From IMG/VR virus record IMGVR_UViG_3300032053_011398: a stretch of DNA of 64,000 nucleotides; one strand, 5' to 3'. Position 1 is the stretch's first letter. Every line of letters begins with the position of its first letter. The notes under the pieces were generated by a model that made no database searches, was not told the origin of the DNA, and was given only the letters and a program-made list of their open reading frames with translations. The position numbers and the translations under genes were made by a program. This document shows positions 9,201 to 54,119 of this stretch, in pieces. The DNA is from a virus.

Positions 9201-10475
9201 ATCGACTTCCAGAAGTCCTTCAGTCGCCGGGTCATACGAAGTCGTCCAGTTTTGATCGGTGTAGAACAGCCGGTGCGACTGCTCCGAAATGTCGGGCCTG
9301 CCTTCCAAGCTGAGGGTGACCGGCAGCGTTTCGGGCAAGTCAGTTTCATAGGTCTGGATAGCGGTCGGCGAGCTGCCCATGCGGCCTTCGGGCGTATCCG
9401 TATCGGTCAGCAGGTTCACCTTGCTGAACAGGACGGCGAAGCGCCGGGCACGCTGGCCTGCTCCACCCTCGGACGTGGATTCAGGGCACAGCCTGAACTC
9501 ATAAACCTGGGTCTTATCATAAAAGCACTTCACCCGGATGCGGAAGCGGAATGGCAATTGCGGGCCGACCGACGTGGCGAAACCTTCGGTCGTGATCTGG
9601 AGCCGGAGGTCGGCGGGCGCGGGCACGAAGTAAGTGTTGCTCAGAAACTCGTAGGGCAGGTCAATCGTGCCCGGAGCTTCGCCTCGGACAGACCAGTTGC
9701 CTGTGGGTGTGCGGACGACGACCTGGCCCGGCGCACGCACCGTCTCTGGATCAAGTTCGACCTGGAAATAAGTCGTGCCTGGCAGCAGGTAAATTTGCTC
9801 GGCCATTGCGGTCATAGGCATAGCCACGGTGGATGAAAAGCTCGCCTCGCCGATCTGCTCGCCAGTATAAGCATAGCCCAGGAATTGCATTGTCTTGCCC
9901 GGCTGCGGCTGGAGGCTGGCCTGAATTTCGTAGTCGCCGACCACGACCGTTGAGCTGTCGCCAGTGACAGTGTTGTTATCGTTGTCAATGACCTTGGAGA
10001 CGATCCGGTAAACACCGTGATCGGCGTTTTCGTAGTGGATCGTGGCGGTGGTGCCTGATGCCTGCCAAATGCTGTTCCGGTAAAGGTTCCAAGTGAGCGA
10101 CTGGTAGTTCCGGCCCCTGGGGTCGCTGAAGACGATTTGAGCGTCGATAGGGTCGCTCTTGCGGTATTGAATCTTGCTCCAATTGATGGAGGTCGTAATC
10201 GGGCCAATGGGAGTGCTAACAACTTGAACGAAAAAGCTTTGGTGCTGAGCAGAACCGTCGCCTTTAACGACGAACACGTCGATCAAAGTGGTGACCGGAT
10301 CAACCGGCGTGAACGAAATCACCGGGGTCGTTCCAGAGGCAATTTCGACCGTCGCCCAGACCGACCAAACGGACTGCAACGGAACCTGGCCGTCCACCAG
10401 GATGCTCAGCGCCGCCGATACGTTGGCAGTCAGAATCGGTGGTAGCGGCTTGCCAGCAAACATCAGCGTTATCAT
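6285..10475 (-). CDS. Large virion fibre/spike protein with C-terminal phosphodiester glycosidase (NAGPA/DUF2233-like) domain
   Basis: 1396 aa. Ig/PKD-like N-terminus and Cys-rich middle. C-terminal FNGNFF, RARTVVG, ALNLDGGGSSSL and RAVGCNL motifs. Confidence 0.75.
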   Translation of the reverse strand: MITLMFAGKPLPPILTANVSAALSILVDGQVPLQSVWSVWATVEIASGTTPVISFTPVDPVTTLIDVFVVKGDGSAQHQSFFVQVVSTPIGPITTSINWSKIQYRKSDPIDAQIVFSDPRGRNYQSLTWNLYRNSIWQASGTTATIHYENADHGVYRIVSKVIDNDNNTVTGDSSTVVVGDYEIQASLQPQPGKTMQFLGYAYTGEQIGEASFSSTVAMPMTAMAEQIYLLPGTTYFQVELDPETVRAPGQVVVRTPTGNWSVRGEAPGTIDLPYEFLSNTYFVPAPADLRLQITTEGFATSVGPQLPFRFRIRVKCFYDKTQVYEFRLCPESTSEGGAGQRARRFAVLFSKVNLLTDTDTPEGRMGSSPTAIQTYETDLPETLPVTLSLEGRPDISEQSHRLFYTDQNWTTSYDPATEGLLEVDAHSTYAIEESRPFTISFMMPAYPTIIQRPRRVWGKVAIYLANGYVNAGTVISVNLLTAGGYSTRSVAVPVMADAFSPDLQTYLKIAEANVDISDAEFIDNGIVGIVNLDESGADLVSWPVGVTRPDPAELQGTVYSMVSGPFARFDGACYHNVGPLVAMMGTTTASANGTYTVDASGTIYPLVADIIACYDPKCVPAGLFCYGEYNGATKLHVLQPLYNPAPYVAPADQVTRCYCNPCITLEWVGTDGILPAYDPFVAYTNGSYCGVAYAFLACNGTSNPLVIPYPSTTIPPGYVAYNGTCYGNAGSLAYTTGYSLVGRDEVDVVYDCQDSFCTGSATGGMVVRYRDHETQRDVDVYMNHMDTGVPFQGVVPQTYDDGAAGLIEGHATVIVSKNVVEQPVLVVPGSGTLEFIVSVSSNDKQLIRYRAGVPTRFPMRLGTFVTKMDVRAGDQINFRMYAKRATIHISWKPWVPRPRLYATGTLYPTAPTPIRAVGFTGLTNRSEYAFYGTLPADVSMTEVNPDSILTVKASGVEYALVRARGITDSVPALPFPCVWYGSNTPLVGPLVFKLYSGREDAGGNGDLDVWLAEQGELAPIFAANSYQSLVRYGDPLPTNRVPEVERNSLRVVDSAFTYRWPSAYIANNGNRLVVAAPPIPNRPVALVYADLYTWAGTVPGGAYNILPWNIGSRMSVNDHIYVDMLVMPDGTRMFVAVVNLINSSTFVTSPGGSRDTVRQTTLDFAASVGADLAFNGNFFLPFPSASPNAADVGFVASSGIVFSPFEPQPIGIGYANQSYAILPYAPALNIGVSGMATVVHRDGAYVDNKHVLEGVALWNGVAGSAQVVTNGVKTIPIYGSGTNQLTAMSGYSNSNSWYNLKRARTVVGVKSDRSTLVVCVAEGVSGSLGGNGGMAVGDIVDILMRNYAVYNALNLDGGGSSSLVVKMNGNYTMLNTSLDGPLGRAVGCNLAISIP

Positions 10476-21518: not shown

Positions 21519-21546
21519 CCAATTAAGCGGATTGGCCGGACCATGA
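21352..21546 (+). CDS. Overlapping small chaperone-like ORF (frameshift extension, or independent start at ATG 21403)
   Basis: +1 frame reads FFVQASSRATELRWHQMFDLAWNG...; its stop overlaps the next gene's ATG (ATGA). Confidence 0.45.
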   Translation, partial: NFFVQASSRATELRWHQMFDLAWNGKGLILNLREVPDQFLEQMVGWANEKIEAQNDQLSGLAGP

Positions 21547-22421
21547 CCGATATTATCCTCGACGGAAATTCGCTCTTTGCCCGATGCTGGTTTGCCGTGA
21601 AAGAAGACCCGGAGGCAACCCGCAGAGTCTTTGTCCAGTCGGCGCTCCAGCTCCTCGATCAAAATGAGGGCCGGATCAACATGCCCATCACGCGGACGCT
21701 GTTCGGTTGGGACGGCCATGCCAAGACCGACAAGCCACGCCAACCCAAGCCCCAGGCTTATGCGGACACCCGCAAGCGTGTCCAGGAAGACATCCTGACG
21801 CTTTTTGACACCACCAACGGCTACCACCCCGACTACGAGGCGGACGACATTGTGGCGACCGTCGTGTTCAATTCCAAGGCCGAGCAAATCGTCGTCGTGA
21901 GCGGCGACAAAGACCTCATGCAGCTCCAGGGCGGCAACGTGGCCTACTACTGCCTGAACTCGAAATCAATGCTGCCGTCCCGCACGATCTGCCATAAATT
22001 TGCTGTCAAGCGCCCGTCCCAAGTCGCCATTGCCCTGGCCATCATCGGTGATCGCGGCGACGGCGTTGGCGGCATACCGAAATGGGGGCCGAAGAAGGTC
22101 GAGAAGCTGTTCAAAGCCGTGACCGAGGCCATGAATTTCGAGTCGGCCCTGGTGACCATCCAAGCCCAAATTCCCGGAAACTTGCTGCCCTTCTTCTTAG
22201 ACTCGCTAGACAAGACCCTGCTCTACAGTGATGTGCCTGGCGTGCCAGAACCATCCGAGTTGAGGTTCTGCTCCAGCCGCGAGTTGATGGCGCTGGGCAT
22301 CAAGGAAATCGCGCAAAGCTACGAGCGCGTCGCCCGGCAGTATGAAGACGGAGGAGGAGGAGAAGCAACCCTGGACGAGATGCTTAAATCAAGCCGTCCT
22401 GCAACAGCGCGGTCAGTATAA
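21543..22421 (+). CDS. 5'-3' exonuclease / RNase H (FEN-type, T4 rnh-like)
   Basis: ILDGNSL, YEADDIVAT, VSGDKDLMQL and GDRGDGVGGIPKWGPK. Confidence 0.9.
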   Translation: MTDIILDGNSLFARCWFAVKEDPEATRRVFVQSALQLLDQNEGRINMPITRTLFGWDGHAKTDKPRQPKPQAYADTRKRVQEDILTLFDTTNGYHPDYEADDIVATVVFNSKAEQIVVVSGDKDLMQLQGGNVAYYCLNSKSMLPSRTICHKFAVKRPSQVAIALAIIGDRGDGVGGIPKWGPKKVEKLFKAVTEAMNFESALVTIQAQIPGNLLPFFLDSLDKTLLYSDVPGVPEPSELRFCSSRELMALGIKEIAQSYERVARQYEDGGGGEATLDEMLKSSRPATARSV

Positions 22422-23157
22422 TTTTGGTATTGAGCGAAGATTCGTAGTGCTTCGCGTAGCCCTCGTCCTCGCTGCCGCCCGCGTAGTCAAAGCGAGACCT
22501 GTCATCCGGGCGTTCTCTTTCCCGCCGTTCTTTGCGCTGCTTCTTATTTGCTTCTACTTCCGCGTCCCCCTTCTTCTTCAATATATCGGCATCAGTGTTA
22601 AGTTCAGACCAGCAATCGTCGCACACCGATCCGCCAAGGGGAGGCATAAGAGCGTGCGTGCCTGGTTTTCCGCACTTCCAACAACGATCAAGACCGGGAT
22701 CTGGTTCTTGCGCTTTACCTTGTGCTTTTCCCCCGACCAGACCCGGCAGCATGTCTAAAACGCCGTAACCTAACCTGCCAAGCGCAACCTTGTTTCTTTC
22801 GTGCCAGCCGAGGGGATCATTGGGTGACCCGGACACAAGCGCCAAAGTTCTAGCATTCTTGTCAAGCTGATAAACCTGACCCGTGGCAGGCACCGCCCAC
22901 TGCTGGCCATCCTGCATCCGATTCAACAAGGCCGTAAACCAAGCGAGATGAGCTGGACTCGGCTGCCAAGCGGCAGGCGCGAGCACAGGGGTTGCAGCTC
23001 CGGCCATACTAAATGGATTGGCGCTGATGGCCCCCAGTATCTTGCCCATGAGGCCAAAGAATCCGCGCCTGTTCAGCGCCTCAGCGACTTCAGTGTCGTC
23101 CTCCAGCAGCGCGGCCAGGATAATCTCGGTGTTGGTTGGCGCAAGATAGCGGCTCAC
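22384..23157 (-). CDS. Putative internal head protein with cryptic twin-arginine motif
   Basis: IILAALLEDDTEVAE-ALNRRGFFGLMG..., a CxxC...CxxC pair, and a C-terminal repeat of the N-terminal motif (IILTALLQD). Confidence 0.55.
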   Translation of the reverse strand: MSRYLAPTNTEIILAALLEDDTEVAEALNRRGFFGLMGKILGAISANPFSMAGAATPVLAPAAWQPSPAHLAWFTALLNRMQDGQQWAVPATGQVYQLDKNARTLALVSGSPNDPLGWHERNKVALGRLGYGVLDMLPGLVGGKAQGKAQEPDPGLDRCWKCGKPGTHALMPPLGGSVCDDCWSELNTDADILKKKGDAEVEANKKQRKERRERERPDDRSRFDYAGGSEDEGYAKHYESSLNTKIILTALLQDGLI

Positions 23158-23510: not shown

Positions 23511-24047
23511 TCAAAAGCGTATCCGCCAGGTTAAAGTTAGGCTGAAATCGGAGGTCTTGTTGATCCCGACGCTGCGGACTTTCCGCGCCAGGAGCGTGTT
23601 GTTGCCGGAGAACAGACCGAACTCGGTCAAGAGGTAGCCGTTGGCGTCGCCGACCGCGACATTGAAACCAACGCGCATGACGAAGGCCGTCAGGAAGTCA
23701 ACGCTGGTGATCTTGGCTACGGTCGCTCCGAACCCAGAGGCCAGCGCCACGGCAGATTCCAGGGCAACATCCGTTACTCTGGCGGCGGTCAAGCCAGTGC
23801 CCACCGCAAATTTTTGGACGGTGTAATTCTCGATAGGGGCACGGAAACCAAAGGCGTAAGCCAGAAGTTGACGGCCTTGGTCCAAAAATAAGTTTCGCCC
23901 CAGGCAAGCTTCATCGTGGCCGACACTCCAACCGCTCGGCGTTCGCTCCGGGGTGATCCATCCGTAATCACAAGCCTTGCGGAGTGGCAATTCCTTGCCA
24001 TCCGCAAGCGTGATCTTGGAAACCGTGATTAGACCTTCAGCTCGCAT
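23511..24047 (-). CDS. Tail collar/fibre-attachment-like structural protein
   Basis: NLFLDQGR...FAVGTG...DVALES...LTEFGLF...LLARKV...INKTSDFSLTLTWRIRF, a typical myovirus baseplate/fibre motif. Confidence 0.65.
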   Translation of the reverse strand: MRAEGLITVSKITLADGKELPLRKACDYGWITPERTPSGWSVGHDEACLGRNLFLDQGRQLLAYAFGFRAPIENYTVQKFAVGTGLTAARVTDVALESAVALASGFGATVAKITSVDFLTAFVMRVGFNVAVGDANGYLLTEFGLFSGNNTLLARKVRSVGINKTSDFSLTLTWRIRF

Positions 24048-24781
24048 CAGTCAGCTCCAGGGGCCTCCAAGAGCCGGTCGGCGATGTCCTGGATCGACGC
24101 CCTGCCGTCCAATTGCTCCATCGCGGGCTGCATTGGATTGATGGCCGCTTTGGAGGGGACGCCACAGGCTTTGGGAGGCAGCTTGACTCGTTGACGGAAA
24201 TTCATTCGGCTCGGAGGAGCACCGCCGAGGCGGCGGCGAAGAGGCATACCCCGGCCTGCCCCCGCCATGCCCAAATCCTCCTTCATGGCCTTGTCCGGCT
24301 GTTCGCCGTCCTTGGTCTTGCCGACGCCCTCGTCCTTCTTCTTGCCGAAGGAGCCTTTGTTCTTGCAGAAGCCGCATTGGCAACCGGCTTTATGTCCGCC
24401 TTCGGACAGCAGCGCAGCGACATCAGTGTCGTCGCCGTCGATGAGCTGGCGCAAAGTCTCCTTCATGGCCTCCTTGCTGATTGCTTCGCCCTCGTCCTCG
24501 CTCTTGCCCTGGCCGGTGGTCGTGGCGTCCTTGCCGCTGGTCGGCGCGTGCGATGGGGCCGCAGCCACGGGGGCGGGAATCGACCCCGAAGGTTGCTTGT
24601 AAGCCTTCTTGACGGGTTCGCCCTCGTCCTCGCTCTTGCCCTGGCCGGTGGTCGTGGCGTCCTTGCCGCTGGTCGGCGCGTGCGATGGGGCCGCAGCCAC
24701 GGGGGCGGGAATACCGTCTTCGCTAACCCTGCGAGCGTGCCGGGCATCGTCCAATCTCGAAATGAACTCGAATGCTTTCAT
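24047..24781 (-). CDS. Low-complexity putative internal head protein
   Basis: Start MKAFEFISRL at 24781. Internal 32-aa duplication, VSE/LLSE/LLE motifs and HxxxCxCxxC. Confidence 0.6.
   Translation of the reverse strand: MKAFEFISRLDDARHARRVSEDGIPAPVAAAPSHAPTSGKDATTTGQGKSEDEGEPVKKAYKQPSGSIPAPVAAAPSHAPTSGKDATTTGQGKSEDEGEAISKEAMKETLRQLIDGDDTDVAALLSEGGHKAGCQCGFCKNKGSFGKKKDEGVGKTKDGEQPDKAMKEDLGMAGAGRGMPLRRRLGGAPPSRMNFRQRVKLPPKACGVPSKAAINPMQPAMEQLDGRASIQDIADRLLEAPGAD
24485..24712. repeat. Perfect 96-bp direct repeat (24485-24580 and 24617-24712)
   Basis: Two identical copies separated by 36 bp, in frame. Confidence 0.9.
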
Positions 24782-25350
24782 ATTGGTAATTGACTGAGAT
24801 GGCTGTGAGCACGCTCGATCCAAGCTTGAAAATCAGCGGCGCTCATTGTTCTTTTTGCTTTGTTACAGATTTCGCAGCAAGCCACACTATTCTCCGGCGT
24901 GTAGCCTTTGGTATTATCTACGCGGTCAATACCATTGTAATGGATCGAGCCAAACATGCCTATACGACCCCGGACATTCTGAGGTTCAGCACCACAGTAG
25001 CGACAATCGGAGAAAATCAATCGAACCACGTCCTCGCGGGTAAGCGCAAAGTCGAGTTGACGCTTTCTGGCAGCTTGAACATAGGTGTTTACGACCGAAT
25101 TGATCGCGTGCTCACCCGGTGCTTTACGGCGAAGTTTGCCAGAATTTGATGCTTTTTCACGCTGAAGACAGCCGCAGCTTTTTGTGCGCCCACGAGACAA
25201 AACAGAAGGCCGCGTGACTGTAATTTTTCCGCAAGCGCACTGAAGTTCGATTTGGCGGAGGATTTGGCCCCCACTAACCGTCCTTTCAAGTTCTCGAAGC
25301 ACGGTTAACCGTCCAAACTTTTGTCCAGCATTTATCTGTAACCCATTCAT
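24778..25350 (-). CDS. HNH homing endonuclease
   Basis: GQKFGRLTV...CACG...TKSCGCL, then CRYCG...YNGIDRVDNTKGYTPENSVACCEICNKAK. Confidence 0.85.
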   Translation of the reverse strand: MNGLQINAGQKFGRLTVLRELERTVSGGQILRQIELQCACGKITVTRPSVLSRGRTKSCGCLQREKASNSGKLRRKAPGEHAINSVVNTYVQAARKRQLDFALTREDVVRLIFSDCRYCGAEPQNVRGRIGMFGSIHYNGIDRVDNTKGYTPENSVACCEICNKAKRTMSAADFQAWIERAHSHLSQLPI

Positions 25351-25967
25351 TATGGCACACTTACGATCATTGAGTCGATATTTACGGGGTAATACCTATC
25401 AATTTGGAGGGAGAGCTGGCAGTCCACCTTGCCGCTGGTGGTCATATCAGCATCCGAAAACTTGAAGCCCTTCAAGAGCACGCCTTCCAGGTAATACTTC
25501 AAGCCGTTTTTCATCGTATTGGGCATCGACTGGGGCACACCACGGATGTCCGCGTTTTGCGCGACCTGGTTGGGGACAATCCAGGTGAAAAACCCATCCG
25601 ACTTGACGAAGCTGGTCAAGCCCACGCCGCCTGTGAGCGGATTTCGGATGAGCCAAAACCACTTTTCCAGCGCCGTGGCAATGTCAGCGGCAAAAGCGTA
25701 GCGAACAGGAATTTCCACGGCGGGTGTCGGGGTGTCGCCGCCAATCAGAAAGTTGGTCTGTTGCATGTATTTGACACCGATGACTTCGATGCTGCGCTCC
25801 GGGAAAGGAAACTTCTCCACCGCGAACTCGACCTGATCCGTCCAATTCATGCGGAGAGCTTGGGGCAGATTGAGCGTGAACTTAAACAGGTCTTGGCGCT
25901 GCAAGTCCAGACCTTGCCCCTGTCCGGCTTGCCCGCCGAACGTGTTCTTGAATAGCATTCTGCTCAT
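25350..25967 (-). CDS. Tail tube protein (gp19-like)
   Basis: Directly downstream of the sheath. LQRQDLFKF...YYLEGV...LSLQIDRY. Confidence 0.75.
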   Translation of the reverse strand: MSRMLFKNTFGGQAGQGQGLDLQRQDLFKFTLNLPQALRMNWTDQVEFAVEKFPFPERSIEVIGVKYMQQTNFLIGGDTPTPAVEIPVRYAFAADIATALEKWFWLIRNPLTGGVGLTSFVKSDGFFTWIVPNQVAQNADIRGVPQSMPNTMKNGLKYYLEGVLLKGFKFSDADMTTSGKVDCQLSLQIDRYYPVNIDSMIVSVP

Positions 25968-25972
25968 AAATC

Positions 25973-28192
25973 TTAGCCAGTTACGTTAGTGAGGTCTGCG
26001 CCCGATTCGCGGACAACAGCGTTGATGTAGATACGCTCCACGGCGTCAGTCGGCACGACGTAGAGATCGACAATCACTTCGCGGCGGTTCCGAGTCGTGG
26101 TGCTGTTGTTCGATTCGTCGCAAACCAGGTTGTAGGCTTCGATGCCCCGCAGGTTCTTGACGCCATCGAGGAACTGCCTCATGGCTAGTTCCAGCGAATT
26201 GAGCAGGGTGAGGTCATTCGGATCGAAGACGAATCGGCGACCGATAGCCGCCAACCCCTGAACCACATACTCGACCAGAACGAGGTTGTGGATCGCGGTG
26301 AGCTTGCTCTCCGTTCGCTGGAGGGTGCGCTCGCCGTAAACCATGATGACCCCGTTGCGCTGGATGATGGGGTTGACCGCGTTGCCAGAGCCATACATGG
26401 CTTCCTTGGCGTTGTCGGACAGGCGCGGGAAAGTGACCGAAGTCGCTTCACTGATGACGCCACGGTTTTCACCGGCAGCGGCAGACCACGGCTGGTCGTG
26501 CAGCCAGGTGTAGGCCATGACCCGCAGAGCGCCGATGGTCGGCGGGCACAGCTTGGGCTGCTGGGTGAGCGGATCACTCATCGTGAACCAGTTCCAGAAA
26601 CACGCCAAATAGGCGGTGTCCATCTTGCCACGATCTTTGAACTTGCCCTGACCGTTGTGCCAGTCGATGGCATCCCACACGTTCAACGGCACCCCATTGA
26701 AGCTGAGGGGCACGTCAATCAGGCCAATGGATTTGGTAATGTAAGCCGTGTCGCGCAACTGAGTGTGGATCGGCAGCTTAGAGGCGTCCGGCGAAGTCTC
26801 GCCAGGAGCACAGAGGACAGTAACATATATGTTGTCCAAGTCCTCGAAGGACTTGATGCCAGTCAGGGTGTCGTCCACGGGATTGAGCTTGCCAACGAAA
26901 TCCTGAGCACGGGCAGCCTCGCCGTTGCATCCTCTATCGAAGGCCCCACCGGGAAGCGGCACGCCGTATTTCGCCGTGTTTGTCGGAGCCTGCGGCACCG
27001 GCGTGGACGGGGAGCTGTTCCAAGGATCGACCGTGTTGGCCGGGACATAGTTGCCCAGCATCTTGATGGTGATGTAGCTGGAAGGCGCGTTGGTATTGAT
27101 GGTATCCGCGAAGTCCAACGGAGGCGCAGTCGTGGGAAACTGAGCCGCGACGCCCAGGTTGTCGTAAACCTCGACCAAAGCCGAATCCCAATAGATGCTG
27201 ATTTTCTTGGTGCCCGCTTGAGTTCCTGGACTGATCTTGACCTGCAACCCGCCAACCGGATTCGAGTTGGTCGTGTTGGCCCAGGTGCCTTCGGTGAGTG
27301 CGTAAATGAGGGCTGCGTTGGTCTTCGAGCTGACCTTCTCGACCGTCGCGGCAGTGTATGTGTCCTGGAGCGGAAGCGCCTGGTAGCCACGTTCGGTGTC
27401 ATCCGTGGCCTGAAGTTCGATGGTTGCTGAGGCGTTAGAACCAGACCCGATAATGGGATTCGTTTTGGCGCAGTAAACTTCGTAGGTCGGAAACTTGCCC
27501 GTCTGGGTGATCCGCAGCAGGTCGCCCACTACAATATAGGTCGGATTGCTCGTGACCGAGAAATAGTAGTTGCCCTTTTCACCGGAAACGACACCAAGGG
27601 TGGGGATGGGGGTGTAACTGTAACCTTCCAAGACGCCTTGGGCCTTGCTGGCGGCGTTGGCCCAATAGCTGAACTGAAGCAAACCGTTCGCGTAGGTGTC
27701 CGGCAGGGTATCCGTGTTCAGCGTGACCACGGTGCCGGAGACGCTGAGCACCTTCGCATTGACAAGGCTCTTCTTGCCATCCTCGGTGATCTGGACGTAA
27801 TAGTTGCCAGTCGGGGTATAAGTCTGATTTTTGTCCACCAGCGGAGCCGCTGCGGTGTCAAAAGTCGTCGCACCGGAGGTTCCGACCACGGCACTGACAA
27901 TGTTTCCTGGCAGATCATTGTATAGCAACCCAACCCGCACAACTATAGAGCCATCGCTGTATGGCGCAACCACGCCCACTGCCGTTCCCAGGAAATAATC
28001 GCCGTCAATCGGCTGGCCGAAAAGGCGGACAAAATCCTGGAGAGTGCGAACCTGGGTCGGCGTGTTAAATGGGCCTTTGCTGGCGACACCAATCAAACCG
28101 GGGCGGAATCGAGCAGTGTTCGTGTTCACGAACGACTGGTCGATTATCTGGGTATAAACTCCCGGAAAGTTCTTTCGCTTAATCGTTGCCAT
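25973..28192 (-). CDS. Tail sheath protein (gp18-like)
   Basis: FPGVYTQIIDQS, GVASKGPFNTP, PWSAAAGENRG, VNPI, YGERTLQ, FVFDPND and CDESNN. Confidence 0.95.
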   Translation of the reverse strand: MATIKRKNFPGVYTQIIDQSFVNTNTARFRPGLIGVASKGPFNTPTQVRTLQDFVRLFGQPIDGDYFLGTAVGVVAPYSDGSIVVRVGLLYNDLPGNIVSAVVGTSGATTFDTAAAPLVDKNQTYTPTGNYYVQITEDGKKSLVNAKVLSVSGTVVTLNTDTLPDTYANGLLQFSYWANAASKAQGVLEGYSYTPIPTLGVVSGEKGNYYFSVTSNPTYIVVGDLLRITQTGKFPTYEVYCAKTNPIIGSGSNASATIELQATDDTERGYQALPLQDTYTAATVEKVSSKTNAALIYALTEGTWANTTNSNPVGGLQVKISPGTQAGTKKISIYWDSALVEVYDNLGVAAQFPTTAPPLDFADTINTNAPSSYITIKMLGNYVPANTVDPWNSSPSTPVPQAPTNTAKYGVPLPGGAFDRGCNGEAARAQDFVGKLNPVDDTLTGIKSFEDLDNIYVTVLCAPGETSPDASKLPIHTQLRDTAYITKSIGLIDVPLSFNGVPLNVWDAIDWHNGQGKFKDRGKMDTAYLACFWNWFTMSDPLTQQPKLCPPTIGALRVMAYTWLHDQPWSAAAGENRGVISEATSVTFPRLSDNAKEAMYGSGNAVNPIIQRNGVIMVYGERTLQRTESKLTAIHNLVLVEYVVQGLAAIGRRFVFDPNDLTLLNSLELAMRQFLDGVKNLRGIEAYNLVCDESNNSTTTRNRREVIVDLYVVPTDAVERIYINAVVRESGADLTNVTG

Positions 28193-48855: not shown

Positions 48856-50310
48856 TTAACCGATTACGCTGCCAAAAGTTGTGGGGCTGTTGACAACGAG
48901 GCCACGGCAAAACATTTTCGAGTTAATCATTTTGCGTGCGAACGAAGTTGCGAACCCGCGCTGGTGGATGAAGTCCGGGAGCACCACGTCGGGCGTGGTG
49001 TAGAGCTTCTGGTATTCCGCCAGCACATATCCCGTCGTGAGGAACTGGTCGCCCTTGTGCCCGACCAGCCACTCGTTGACCGGAAAGTGCGGGTCAGCGA
49101 AGACCTTCTTGTTGCCGAGGTCACCCAGGTAGGTGACGCCCTGCATCTGCGTCCGGGCGTTGCGAGCCACGAACTGGGGCAGCGTGGCAACGACCGTTGC
49201 AGCCTGAAGACCGAGGAGCAGCCAGTTTCCGGCGACCATGTTCGTGGCCCCGAAGATGAAGTTGCTCGCCGTCTCGAAGGCGTCGATGATGGAGAACTTG
49301 TGGGTCTGGTAGTTCACCGAGGGCGGGGCCACGGCGTCCCATACCACGAAGCCAGCGTCGGCACGCGCCCGGAGGTCGAAGATCACCTGGCGGTGCTTTT
49401 GATAGGTCAACGCATTCGTCAGGGCGTTGAGCAGGACGCTCTCCGCCTTGATGTTATACATCGCCTGGAGGTTTTGGTCGGCTTCTTCGGACCACAGAGT
49501 CTTGAGCTTCATCACCTTCGCCGTAACCGGCGTGGAGCTGAGCTTCATCTCGTAGTCCTGGATGTTCAGGTTGCCTTCGGCGTTGAACGCATAGGTCACG
49601 CTGTAGGCTGCCGTTGCCCCCACACCCGTAACGGTGATGGCACCTGTGACGTAGTTGATCGTGCCGCCAGCGATAGTGCCGACCGGCAAGATACTGCCGT
49701 TGCTGTCGTCGGTGGTGACATCAGAACCAACGGTCACCGTCAAGGTGCCCGCACGGATCGGATACCACTCCAACTGACCGGCATTGCCGGACAGCACGCC
49801 CGACTCGTCCTGGACGAGTTCGTCACCGTCGTCATCGCGGTCAACCGCGCCTTGCAGGGCACGCCACATGGGGGCGCCCGCAGGGGTGCGGCCTTTCCGG
49901 CGACCGGTCACAATGTCCATGTAAACGATCTGGCTCACCGGCCCGGCCATAGGCTGAAGCGCGACGAGCTGGTCGATCACATCGTTCTCCGACATGTTCG
50001 CAATGATGGGGAAAATCCACTTGTCGAACGTGCCCAGGGACGTGGTGCGCGTCACTTCGTCCAGTTGGCCGAAGCGGCTGCGGCAGTTTTCGAGCATGAT
50101 CGCCGTATAGGCCCGTTTGTGTTCGGGCATGTGGGCGACGAACTCCTTCCAGCCTTTGGCTTCCCAAAGGCCCTTGGGATTTTTGTCGGTAATTCCGACC
50201 GGCGTTTCGGCCAACTTATAGCCCCATTCCAGCGTCTCCGTGAAACGGGCGATATGACCGCCGTTGGTCGCCAGCATCGGCCTACCGGTTAGTGCATCTT
50301 GTATAACCAT
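48856..50310 (-). CDS. Major capsid protein (T4 gp23-like)
   Basis: TAIMLEN, LVALQPMAGPVSQIVYM, VTAKVMKLKTLWSEEADQNL and RGFATSFARKMIN. Confidence 0.92.
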   Translation of the reverse strand: MVIQDALTGRPMLATNGGHIARFTETLEWGYKLAETPVGITDKNPKGLWEAKGWKEFVAHMPEHKRAYTAIMLENCRSRFGQLDEVTRTTSLGTFDKWIFPIIANMSENDVIDQLVALQPMAGPVSQIVYMDIVTGRRKGRTPAGAPMWRALQGAVDRDDDGDELVQDESGVLSGNAGQLEWYPIRAGTLTVTVGSDVTTDDSNGSILPVGTIAGGTINYVTGAITVTGVGATAAYSVTYAFNAEGNLNIQDYEMKLSSTPVTAKVMKLKTLWSEEADQNLQAMYNIKAESVLLNALTNALTYQKHRQVIFDLRARADAGFVVWDAVAPPSVNYQTHKFSIIDAFETASNFIFGATNMVAGNWLLLGLQAATVVATLPQFVARNARTQMQGVTYLGDLGNKKVFADPHFPVNEWLVGHKGDQFLTTGYVLAEYQKLYTTPDVVLPDFIHQRGFATSFARKMINSKMFCRGLVVNSPTTFGSVIG

Positions 50311-50364: not shown

Positions 50365-52014
50365 TCAGCCGTTCACGCTCGCCTTCGACAGCCGCGTCAC
50401 CATTCCAATGGCTTCGTTAAGGCCGCGAGGATCGGTCGGCGTTGCACTGATGATCGTTAACCCTTCGGTAACCGGGGCCTTGGGGCTACCTTCGGCTGGC
50501 GGAGCCGCAGGTTTCTTTCCCTCCGTCACGGACGGAGCCGCCGCCCCTGACTTTTTGGTCTCATCGACCTTGCCAGCGGGTGGATTGGTTTTGCCTTCGC
50601 AAAGGGCGCGGATGGCAACCAGGTCACGAGGCTTGGTCGCTTCCTTGAGCGCCTTCTGGATTTCGGGCGTCTGAGCCTTCTCGGCGAACTCCAGTTGGAT
50701 GACGCGCCTGCCCATCTCAGTCACGTCCGCCTTATACTTCGAGGCGAGCTGCTGGAGGGCTTCGGACGCCATCATGAAGCGGCGGCGATACTTGGCCGAC
50801 TCGGCTTCATTGACCTTGGCCAGTTGACGCCAGGCTTGGCCGCGCTCCACGACTTCGTTGAGCAGGGCCGATTGACGACCGACCTGTTTGATGGACTCGC
50901 CGAGCTTGTTCTTGAAGGTCAGGCCCGTCTGCGCGACAGCCTTGATGACCTGCATGAGCTTGGTGTTGTCCTCGTTCAGCTTCGAGGCCCGTTTGCCGGG
51001 CGCGAGCTGCGCTTCCTGCCAGGTGTTCTCAATGGATTTGATCTCGTCATGAAGTTGCTGGCCATTCCAGGAACGCTTCGCGTCCTCGGCAACAAAATTG
51101 GCAACCTCCTGATGGAGCGCACCCAGTTGAGACATCCCTTCGGCAAACCGCTGCGGGCCGAGCTTGGAAGGTTCCAAACCCCGGAACGTAGCAATCGTCG
51201 TTTTGATTTCGTTCAGGTTCATAGCTTTTTCTTGGGATGATTCCGTTGTTTTCACCGGAGTTGACGCCCCGGATGTTGGAGCCTGAGAACCCCGCTCAGC
51301 TTCCAAAGTGGTTTGTTGCAGTGGGACAGCCGGGGCCGCAGGAGCAACTGGCGCTGTCGTCTCGGAAATAGGCGCAACACCTGAAGACGGCAAAGCAGCC
51401 TTTTTCTCGGCTGCCTCGGCGGTAACTGCCTCGCGTTGTGGCTTCATCTCGGCAGTCTCGAAGGACGGCTTCATCACAATGTCCGCGCCTTCGCACACGT
51501 AATCTTCTTGGACATCATCCGCGCCATCTGAGGCGCGAACCAAGGAGCCGAACCCACGGGTCGAAACCAAAGGATTGTAATTGGTGGTCTCGACAAGGGT
51601 CTTGATGCGGTCGCCATCTGGGAAGCCAGGGCCAGAGAGGACTTGAATTTCGCCCACAACCTCCCATATCTCCTTGCCCTTTTCATCGGTGCCTTTTTGA
51701 AGCTTGGCCTCGGTGAGCAGGTGGGAAATGGGGGAGCGCCAGTTAACCGCGCCATCAGTCGGGTGCTCCAAGAGGCCGAACGCGGCACTCTTGCCGATGG
51801 ACTGCATGAGCACGGAGCCAGGCTCCAAATTCTTCTCCCAAACACGCTTGCCGTAGCGCCGACCATTGCCGTTGAGCGTGTCGCACAGGCTAATGCGGCC
51901 AGGCATCCGCGTCCGGCTGCCCCCGTTGGGGAGGCTTTCGGTGATGATCTTGTTCCGATCAACAATGAAAGGGACGGCCCCTTTCAAGCCTTCAGCAAGG
52001 TATTGTCGTGCCAT
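50365..52014 (-). CDS. Prohead protease (gp21-like) fused to coiled-coil scaffold
   Basis: NGNGRRY, FGLLEHP, ISH, VSTRGFGS and DIVMKPS, followed by a linker and coiled coil. Confidence 0.85.
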   Translation of the reverse strand: MARQYLAEGLKGAVPFIVDRNKIITESLPNGGSRTRMPGRISLCDTLNGNGRRYGKRVWEKNLEPGSVLMQSIGKSAAFGLLEHPTDGAVNWRSPISHLLTEAKLQKGTDEKGKEIWEVVGEIQVLSGPGFPDGDRIKTLVETTNYNPLVSTRGFGSLVRASDGADDVQEDYVCEGADIVMKPSFETAEMKPQREAVTAEAAEKKAALPSSGVAPISETTAPVAPAAPAVPLQQTTLEAERGSQAPTSGASTPVKTTESSQEKAMNLNEIKTTIATFRGLEPSKLGPQRFAEGMSQLGALHQEVANFVAEDAKRSWNGQQLHDEIKSIENTWQEAQLAPGKRASKLNEDNTKLMQVIKAVAQTGLTFKNKLGESIKQVGRQSALLNEVVERGQAWRQLAKVNEAESAKYRRRFMMASEALQQLASKYKADVTEMGRRVIQLEFAEKAQTPEIQKALKEATKPRDLVAIRALCEGKTNPPAGKVDETKKSGAAAPSVTEGKKPAAPPAEGSPKAPVTEGLTIISATPTDPRGLNEAIGMVTRLSKASVNG

Positions 52015-52686: not shown

Positions 52687-52927
52687 CAGGCGGTTCCCTG
52701 TATCTTTCAATCTCGATGGCTCCCTTATAGAAGTTCCAAACGTGGTCAAGAGCTTTTTCAACTAGGATCATGTCGGCCCCACGCTCGCGGAACCATTCGA
52801 CGGTCTCGTCTGGGTCAAGTTCTTCGGTATGGACTGAACCGTCCGCCTTGGGGATGTGCAGGGTGAAAAAGTCAATGAACGGCTCCCGCTTTACAAGAAC
52901 CGTCAGGGATTTGCCAATCTCGCTCAC
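52652..52927 (-). CDS. Hypothetical protein
   Basis: 91 aa, coupled to the upstream gene. Confidence 0.55.
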   Translation of the reverse strand: MSEIGKSLTVLVKREPFIDFFTLHIPKADGSVHTEELDPDETVEWFRERGADMILVEKALDHVWNFYKGAIEIERYREPPVKEPLLQPKID

Positions 52928-53658
52928 ATGAAGCGCCGAAAGGCACTGTAAACCGTCTTGCCGTCGCCTTCTTTGTGGTCCGGCATGAGCGAAGTGCCGG
53001 GCTGGGCCGGAGTCAAAGCCTCAGCGACTTTGACCGTGATCTCAGCCGGATTCACGTTCATTGCCGCCACGACCGATTCGGCCATCGTTTCCAGCTCTTC
53101 CGGCGCGGGGTTCTGACGGCCCAGGATCGTGTCCATCGCCCCCCTGGCACCAGCCGACATGGTTTGATGGCCCATTTGCTGGGCGGCGGCAACGGATGGC
53201 GGAGGCGTTGGGCGCTCAATGGATTTCGGCGGGGCCGGAACCTGGGACGGGTCGATCTGCTTCATGACGTTGGGCGTCACGTCCGGCGCGACCAGGGCAG
53301 CGGTCGGCTGGATCAATTCCGCGCCATCGACGTTGGCCATGAACTGTGGTTCAGCCGGGCCTTCAGCCGAGGGTAAAGGGTCGTTACGGACGCCGGGGAT
53401 GGTCTCGCCGCCGAGCGTCGTATCAACCGGCTTCGCTTCGGAGGGGATGATCGACTCGTCATCGCTCTCGGTCATGCCGATGATGCTGGCCACGACCGAA
53501 CTTTGGCGGGCCTTGGCCCGGAGTTTGTCATCGTTTTTGTCCTTCGGCGGCTGGATGCGCAACGGCAATGGACGGCGGGGCTTACCGGCCAAGACCGGTG
53601 GAACGTCCCCACTTTCGGCCACTCTGCGGCCCAAGATTTGGTCAACAAGGTTGCTCAC
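52924..53658 (-). CDS. Pro-rich putative head protein
   Basis: Repeated DxILGR and VAE/MTE/MAE motifs. Confidence 0.55.
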   Translation of the reverse strand: MSNLVDQILGRRVAESGDVPPVLAGKPRRPLPLRIQPPKDKNDDKLRAKARQSSVVASIIGMTESDDESIIPSEAKPVDTTLGGETIPGVRNDPLPSAEGPAEPQFMANVDGAELIQPTAALVAPDVTPNVMKQIDPSQVPAPPKSIERPTPPPSVAAAQQMGHQTMSAGARGAMDTILGRQNPAPEELETMAESVVAAMNVNPAEITVKVAEALTPAQPGTSLMPDHKEGDGKTVYSAFRRFM

Positions 53659-54119
53659 CGTTCAACTCCAAGGATTTGCCGGATCGGACAGCCCTGGGCG
53701 TCCTGGGGCGACTCGACCGAGGCGGGTTCAGTGGTTGCGACACCTTCGCCAGGAGGGCCTTCCTCGGCCCCCAGGGATATGTCCTGACCTTCATACTCCC
53801 CCTGCTGCTTCAGCATGATGTCCGCCATCTTGGCAAGCTCTAAGGCCCCTTCCCGGCCAATGGCAAAGACTAACTTTACGGCAGTCTCATTGTCCATTAG
53901 CAGAAACCGTGCGGTCACGTCCGGGCGGTTGCCCTGTGACCACAGGTTGGCAAGCTCATCAATCTCAGCTTCGGGTGTCGCCTCAGAATTGGATGGCTCA
54001 GCTTTTGGCGCGGAAGACTCCGGCCCTGTGATCTTCTTGGCCTTGAACTTCTTTTCCTTCTCGTCAGTGTCAGGTTTGTCATCGGCCTCGCCGAGAATCA
54101 GCTTAATGATGTCAGCCAT
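53655..54119 (-). CDS. Acidic putative head protein
   Basis: IIKLILGE at the N-terminus and IRQILGVE at the C-terminus. GTAGTTA upstream (54128-54134). Confidence 0.55.
   Translation of the reverse strand: MADIIKLILGEADDKPDTDEKEKKFKAKKITGPESSAPKAEPSNSEATPEAEIDELANLWSQGNRPDVTARFLLMDNETAVKLVFAIGREGALELAKMADIMLKQQGEYEGQDISLGAEEGPPGEGVATTEPASVESPQDAQGCPIRQILGVER

Follow-up and report, generated by a model that had tools for sequence, protein, structure and literature searches.

Does a protein loaded into a phage head carry an export signal that works only once the head protease has cut in front of it? This question is raised by an open reading frame (ORF) at positions 22384-23157 (minus strand), called here the target, in a 64,000-nucleotide stretch of viral DNA, IMG/VR record IMGVR_UViG_3300032053_011398; the whole stretch is referred to as the window. 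A first-pass annotation had read the target product as an acidic propeptide followed by a cryptic twin-arginine translocation (Tat) signal, masked in the producer cell, exposed by cleavage during head maturation and used after ejection into the next host. The best overall explanation of the sequences remains of this kind, namely a head cargo that is trimmed, ejected and then engages its Tat-type motif in the new host, and we prefer it tentatively, at somewhat less than even chances. Its best-supported part, which we consider slightly favoured, is that the protein would be packaged and trimmed by the protease, leaving the arginine pair (RR) two residues from the new N-terminus. The whole chain, from trimming through ejection to use of the motif as a Tat address by the next host, is doubtful.

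Layout of the target and of its family

The target encodes 257 amino acids (aa) from a GTG start, and the identical protein (P0001) is present on five contigs, the longest of 172 kb. All residues quoted in the first-pass annotation were found exactly as described: an acidic stretch, an RR motif, a weakly hydrophobic stretch and an AxA-like AGA↓A (arrows mark cleavage positions). The acidic leader (residues 1-26; 23080-23157, on the minus strand like all target features) has a net charge of -5 and two candidate protease sites, LLE19↓D and VAE26↓A. It contains an amphipathic helix repeat (residues 8-21, TNTEIILAALLEDD; 23095-23136), of which residues 9-20 are helical in the AlphaFold2 (AF2) model. 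Behind the leader come the twin-arginine motif N-R-R-G-F-F (residues 29-34, RR being 30-31; 23056-23073), a Gly/Ala-rich, weakly hydrophobic stretch that resembles the hydrophobic region (h-region) of a signal peptide and has one lysine, K39 (residues 32-51; 23005-23064), and AGA↓A, a candidate signal-peptidase site (residues 52-55; 22993-23004); a second small-x-small site, APA↓A, lies at residues 60-63. K39 is followed by 22 uncharged residues, the best 12-residue Kyte-Doolittle mean is 1.73, and AF2 predicts a helix over residues 22-46 with a pLDDT of about 60-70. A classical transmembrane anchor was rejected, the best 19-residue Kyte-Doolittle window being below 1.2.

The remainder of the protein comprises a conserved alpha/beta domain of about 75 aa (residues 62-139; 22741-22974; pLDDT 93-98), a C4 zinc ribbon with weak DZR_2/HscB_4_cys matches, common to P0090 (residues 159-182; 22612-22683), a charged K/R/E-rich helix (residues 186-219; 22501-22602), the C-motif (S221-E239, SRFDYAGGSEDEGYAKHYE; 22441-22497), which is the most conserved part of the family, and a C-terminal copy of the leader helix (residues 242-255, LNTKIILTALLQDG; 22393-22434). 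The two helix copies are identical at 32 of 42 nucleotides (76%). The 3' end of the target gene overlaps by 38 bp (22384-22421) with that of a convergent 5'-3' exonuclease gene (21543-22421, plus strand); therefore, the C-terminal helix copy is encoded opposite the last exonuclease codons.

The only close homologue of the target is P0002, from a 1.8-kb metagenome contig (77-80% identical). Identity is 56% in the leader, 72% in the RR and h-like part, 83% in the central domain and 95% in the C-terminal motif; N-R-R-G-F-F and, further, RRGFFGLMGK are kept unchanged, and AGA↓A is replaced by AVA↓A.

By its sequence, the target belongs to a modular family that is seen only in uncultured T4-like phage contigs. 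The modules are arranged in the order: a short hydrophobic leader ending in [ILV]-x-E, one or a few residues, the motif h-(S/N)-R-R-x-F-L-x-x-x-G-(K/R)-G...P, a variable cargo, a K/E-rich linker and the C-motif, whose family consensus is ..SRxDxAGGSEDxGYAKYYE (invariant R, D, G, E, D, Y, A and E). In relatives the C-motif is often followed by another leader-like helix, of the same type as the C-terminal copy in the target, and this common family module explains the helix repeat at target residues 8-21 and 242-255.

Sixteen RR motifs were tabulated across the family for site spacing and h-region length. Homologues, which the first-pass annotation had proposed to survey, carry a candidate cleavage site in front of RR: [ILV]-x-E lies 2-6 residues upstream in 13 of the 16 motifs, the spacing E-x-h-(S/N)-RR is fixed in 11, and the P1' residue is Ala in 10. 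Further members repeat the pattern (..QLME↓AMSRR, ..QILE↓NMSRR, ..LVEE↓AMGRR, ..YITE↓ADMGRR). Internal modules were observed in five polyproteins, P0105, P0120, P0135 (the L009 ORF), P0136 and P0026, with RR motifs at residues 77, 224, 270, 335 and 371 among others, each behind a leader. P0026 differs from P0020 only by an additional RR module that sits between two leader helices. P0013 and P0017 are also multi-module ORFs, and the target has a single cargo block made of the 75-aa domain and the zinc ribbon. With one exception, every module retains RR and F. P0120 and P0144-P0147 are leaderless, their predicted starts lying directly at M-(S/D/N)-RR; because some members start in this way, the RR motif appears to behave as an autonomous N-terminal element. 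The pattern [NSTK]RR.F[LFIVM] is not a frequent chance pattern, since only one other real ORF of the window, the exonuclease, has it, in that case with no hydrophobic stretch behind the motif.

A scan for the C-motif identified three loci in IMG/VR and seven in metagenomes. An S77 protease (106 bits) is encoded in both sizeable IMG/VR records with a C-motif protein. UvsY, SegE and T4-gp15 genes were found in contexts L001 and L002, with UvsY, SegE and gp46/47-like genes around P0105 and T4-gp15 near P0120. The family has no isolate relative, as none of 50,697 phage records, T4 included, was matched in tblastn searches with the target, P0105 or P0129. A protein search restricted to the C-terminal 62 residues returned the target itself and P0002 only, and the degenerate DNA pattern for h-x-E-A-M-(S/N)-R-R-x-F-L had no match in IMG/VR.

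The cargo was analysed by an exhaustive phmmer search with the target, which gave 129 matches, nearly all distant and aligning to residues 62-139; a second group aligned to residues ~156-247, which cover the zinc ribbon, the charged helix and the C-motif. The 75-aa domain stands alone in proteins of 73-100 aa and is also part of larger phage proteins; in its multidomain relatives a leader-type helix precedes every domain. Its BFVD matches are three small uncharacterised viral proteins. No Pfam family and no solved-structure relative was found for this domain. Foldseek searches of the PDB with the full and domain-only models gave no match at E <= 0.001, and the best hits of a wide VIA-align search (Z 4.9, the zinc finger plus helix of Rabex-5, and Z 4.2) lie inside the stated noise of the tool. 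A PDB profile search and the ESM Atlas gave no relative, and for the target Pfam, PHROGs and NCBIfam gave weak zinc-ribbon matches only. Six relatives (P0013, P0017, P0019, P0024, P0035 and P0009) join the 75-aa domain to two other parts, a HAD-like phosphatase block (..WIGVDLDGTLAK..) and, at the C-terminus, a ..SPEIxTLKK..WYWCATHR.. domain; in these proteins an ..LLE-acidic helix precedes each of the three parts. P0007 and P0020 have an extra zincin-like HELVH domain.

Other features were noted along the family. A basic tail of about 60 aa (..GRKGLAKRSGVN..MAHWMANMK..) follows the C-motif in many relatives, among them P0137, P0138, P0142, P0144, P0145 and L008. Its counterpart in L003:229-1263 matches Pfam DUF6321 (E 3.5e-15), and in L001 a separate DUF6321 gene (9754-10059) runs into the beginning of the polyprotein gene. 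Possibly, DUF6321 is a further module of capsid cargo. Radical SAM genes directly adjoin the polyprotein genes P0013 and P0026 (L015, L016), and L001 contains GTP cyclohydrolase I and PTPS genes, which may serve to modify DNA with 7-deazaguanine. These adjacencies may be coincidental.

Head machinery and capsid-targeting leaders

Judged by its genes, which include those for a gp5-like hub, a sheath, UvsX and a gp32-like protein, the window phage is clearly a distant T4-like myophage. Its DNA has no counterpart among 50,697 deposited phage genomes (megablast, 10 kb around the target). The presence of a gp21-type protease, which the first-pass annotation had taken from T4, was confirmed in the window itself. 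First, the ORF at 50365-52014 (minus strand) has a Peptidase_S77 (PF03420) domain at residues 44-193, with a score of 37.6 bits for a cut-off of 27. Second, a Gp23-family major capsid protein (PF07068, 95.4 bits; best capsid protein matches 26-29% identical) is encoded at 48856-50310 (minus strand), and its L-x-E sites, MLE74↓N and LDE84↓V, sit roughly where T4 gp23 is trimmed. The protease domain is fused to a scaffold-like C-terminal part of about 350 aa, which is Ala/Pro- and coiled-coil-rich and contains a repeated ..VTE↓G.. and a terminal ..GLNE↓A... This ORF may encode a protease-scaffold fusion; in T4, gp21 and gp22 are separate.

Proteins packaged into the T4 head carry a capsid-targeting sequence (CTS), a propeptide of about 10-19 aa with a hydrophobic or aromatic residue at each of positions 4 and 7 and a terminal h-x-E; residues 4 and 7 determine targeting, residues 8 and 10 processing (PMC9026906). 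T4 Alt is trimmed at both termini, and gp21-like proteases of giant phages likewise cut after Glu (PMC9026906). The internal proteins of T-even phages have diverse cargo and the CTS alone in common (PMC3012670). The starts of the T4 ip and alt genes, read from NC_000866, are MKTYQEFIAE↓A for ipII and ipIII, MKTFKEF...ITE↓A for ipI and MELITELFDE for alt. Family leaders such as MLTFKKFYISE↓A, MIKFKKFYVSE↓A and MSKVYNILSE↓A likewise have a hydrophobic or aromatic residue at positions 4 and 7 and a terminal h-x-E↓A, and the fit to the CTS is close in the relatives L007, L009, P0105 and P0136. The target leader contains LLE19 and VAE26, has nothing that corresponds by position to CTS residues 4 and 7, and is only loosely CTS-like. 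Helices of leader type are also found at the start or end of several further ORFs of the window, including in the head region.

From these observations we infer packaging, cleavage and ejection of the target as follows. The amphipathic acidic leader would act like a T4 CTS, the C-terminal copy of the leader helix would probably target likewise, and both would draw the protein into the prohead core. The S77 protease would then cut on the C-terminal side of Glu in h-x-E sites; VAE26↓A27 is the most probable cut, and LLE19↓D and ..HYE239↓S, behind the C-motif, may be used as well. The mature protein would start at A-L-N-R-R-G-F-F..., with the RR motif, the h-like stretch and AGA↓A at a free N-terminus, and this trimmed form would leave the capsid together with the DNA.

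The proposal that cleavage exposes the RR motif is thus sustained at the level of the family, by the spacing of the sites, by leaders resembling the T4 CTS and by the internal polyprotein RR motifs, which could become N-terminal only through cleavage; it is weakened for the target by a leader that is only loosely of this type. The related proposal that the signal is masked in the producer cell is not supported for the single-module target. Signal-peptide n-regions of Tat substrates can be long, and with RR at 30-31 the motif is still N-terminal, so masking by the leader would be weak. Real masking would concern only the internal modules of polyproteins.

Tat likeness of the twin-arginine segment and competing explanations

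The motif bound by TatC is S-R-R-x-F-L-K (PMC5539426), and the family consensus (S/N)-R-R-x-F-L fits it. In the target, RR, x and F match, F stands for L and N for S, and K is absent. As in bacterial Tat signals, the target thus has RR, F at +2, L/F at +3 and S/N at -1, followed by a Gly/Ala-rich stretch and AGA↓A. Two Tat profiles were applied to relatives, TIGR01409 (cut-off 16.7; 20 proteins) and Pfam TAT_signal (PF10518, cut-off 22.7). Three proteins scored over the cut-off of TIGR01409 (P0105, 41.6; P0136, 19.1; P0120, 17.0) and ten more below it; P0105 also scored over the cut-off of TAT_signal (33.1), with several others below. An h-region of at least 13 uncharged residues follows only six of the 16 tabulated RR motifs; the target has 22 such residues and then AGA↓A. 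The fullest signal-like segments are those of the target and P0026, both from GC-rich phages.

If this segment acts as a Tat signal, the likeliest partner of the exposed motif would be TatBC, the Tat receptor, or the inner membrane of the new host, and the 75-aa domain, the zinc ribbon and the charged tail would be exported or anchored through it. Tat engagement after ejection is the most speculative step. A Tat address would be the only known function that fits both the motif and its strict position, and it is partly contradicted by the weak h-regions. That the address is gated in two steps, the head protease removing a loading leader and thereby creating a functional Tat signal for the Tat machinery of the new host, we regard as unlikely.

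Several observations weigh against a trimmed cargo with a Tat address. The target leader, at 26 aa, is longer than and unlike the 10-19-aa T4 CTS, its P3 residue is Val, and the motif behind it reads N-RR-G-F-F. The target and P0002 were reported neither by TIGR01409 nor by PF10518 at E values up to 10. Most AT-rich members have only 7-12 uncharged residues after RR, interrupted by Lys, and the first RR motif in each P0105 module has no hydrophobic part. The RR conservation that the first-pass annotation required holds in P0002 and in nearly all modules, and fails in P0100, which aligns with EE in place of RR. As for the cargo, the 75-aa domain is mostly found in proteins that have no signal at all, the zinc ribbon and basic helix look more like a nucleic-acid binder, and no periplasmic or envelope function was recognisable in any family cargo.

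In a first alternative, the protein would again be a packaged and trimmed head cargo, with an RR segment that is not a Tat address but a conserved amphipathic Gly-rich helix with another job. The helix could bind the scaffold core or the protease on the P' side, interact with DNA or with the portal, or, once ejected, attach to the membrane from the cytoplasm. This explanation, which we rate as somewhat unlikely, draws on the short Lys-interrupted stretches of most relatives, the non-hydrophobic first motif of the P0105 modules, EE in P0100, the failure of the Tat profile hidden Markov models to detect the target and the cytoplasmic or DNA-binding appearance of the cargo. It is also consistent with the co-occurrence of the RR motif and the C-motif in most members, like two ends of one functional unit. 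It does not readily explain why the Tat consensus is matched at five positions over very different modules, why three proteins exceed curated Tat cut-offs, or why leaderless members begin (by predicted starts) at M-S/D/N-RR, as true Tat precursors do. To our knowledge, no other function has been assigned to S-R-R-x-F-L.

An ordinary Tat-exported or membrane-anchored protein of the producer cell, with the 26-aa leader as a long n-region and no place in the virion, is improbable in our estimation. RR at 30-31 does fall in the usual N-terminal range, the target has a complete h-like stretch and a complete AGA↓A, and several relatives have 10-14 residues, or none, before RR. Such a protein would leave unexplained the conserved [ILV]-x-E↓A before RR, the acidic leader, the resemblance of other leaders to the T4 CTS, the C-terminal leader copy, the internal RR modules of polyproteins and the co-occurrence with an S77 protease.

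Cassette shuffling through conserved ends has been proposed for the IP loci of T-even phages, and it is very improbable that the conserved ends of the present family are mainly such recombination handles, RR being a functionless relic of a captured host Tat signal: the DNA identity of the two helix copies, the cassette inserted between leader helices in P0026 relative to P0020 and the occurrence of modules singly, doubled or fused to other domains favour it, whereas it is at odds with the retention of RR and F in nearly every module and with protein motifs shared by AT-rich and GC-rich phages, between which DNA recombination is not possible.

Neighbouring genes, significance and comparison with known systems

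The target is the final gene of a compact minus-strand block that begins with the tail sheath gene (25973-28192) and includes the tube gene (25350-25967); its GTG start overlaps the stop codon of an upstream 117-aa ORF (GTGA). Identification as a tape measure or tail chaperone, suggested by the position after the tube gene, was rejected, no match supporting it. The T4 late promoter TATAAATA is absent within the window, where promoter and terminator scans stayed at chance level.

A neighbouring ORF of 244 aa (24047-24781, minus strand) has a start resembling T4 IPI (MKAFEFIS..) and a C-terminal leader-like helix (..IADRLLEA..), and its product is likely another capsid-cargo protein. This ORF also contains a perfect tandem repeat of about 32 aa with ..GQGKSEDEGE.., which recalls the target C-motif, and a CxCxxC cluster. 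Its start overlaps (ATGA) the stop codon of an HNH/endonuclease VII-like gene (PHROG 1035/374; 24778-25350, minus strand), which separates the tail tube gene from the small ORFs downstream and looks like a homing endonuclease within the late block. Upstream of the protease, two minus-strand ORFs start with leader-like helices, 53655-54119 with MADIIKLILGE↓A.. and 52924-53658 with MSNLVDQILGRRVAE↓S..; by position, their products are candidate prohead-core proteins like T4 gp67 and gp68.

If the preferred explanation of a trimmed and ejected cargo with a Tat-type motif is correct, phages would pre-load proteins for the envelope of the next host and deliver them through a host translocase that accepts folded proteins. 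In the two-step, gated form of this explanation, the Tat machinery of the new host would place a phage protein in the inner membrane or periplasm in the first moments of infection, with superinfection exclusion, envelope repair or the blocking of envelope-based defence as possible uses, and polyproteins would release several addressed cargos from one gene. Even if RR is not a Tat signal, the architecture of leader, RR motif and C-motif, the tandem polyproteins and the C-motif itself would serve as markers for capsid-delivered effectors in uncultured T4-like phages, and they would also offer candidate cleavage sites on which a divergent gp21-type protease can be tested directly. A full-text literature search retrieved no published description of the leader plus twin-arginine layout, nor of a Tat route for injected phage proteins.

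Three known systems can be compared with the family. Bacterial Tat signals, which the target resembles in the positions listed above, differ in that the family motif lies behind an acidic leader or deep within polyproteins, that many relatives have charged and short h-regions, and that the cargo shows no sign of being periplasmic. Polyvalent or multi-effector proteins and the ejection proteins of phiKZ-like and SPN3US-like phages are similar in that the modules of the relatives are separated by Glu-ending helices; these known proteins belong to another phage lineage, have other domains, and an export-type motif at their new N-termini is unreported.

The closest comparison is with IPI, IPII, IPIII and Alt of T4. 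The classic example of protein injection together with phage DNA is given by the T4 internal proteins, of which all those known to us act in the cytoplasm. The target phage has the corresponding gp21-type protease and Gp23-type capsid genes; the target has a leader ending in h-x-E followed by Ala, the family places varied cargo behind a conserved leader, some relatives have leaders that nearly copy the T4 CTS, and the helix copies put propeptide-like pieces at both ends of the target, as in Alt. The mature part of the target has no homology to these four proteins in PHROG, Pfam or tblastn searches (T4 included); therefore, its membership of the T4 internal protein class would be functional only, and not by descent. 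The family differs from them by a twin-arginine motif after the cut site, the C-motif and tandem modules in single ORFs, which are undescribed there. In conclusion, CTS-borne capsid cargo is itself known, and what the present sequences would add to it is an export-type motif, a conserved C-motif and polyprotein forms.

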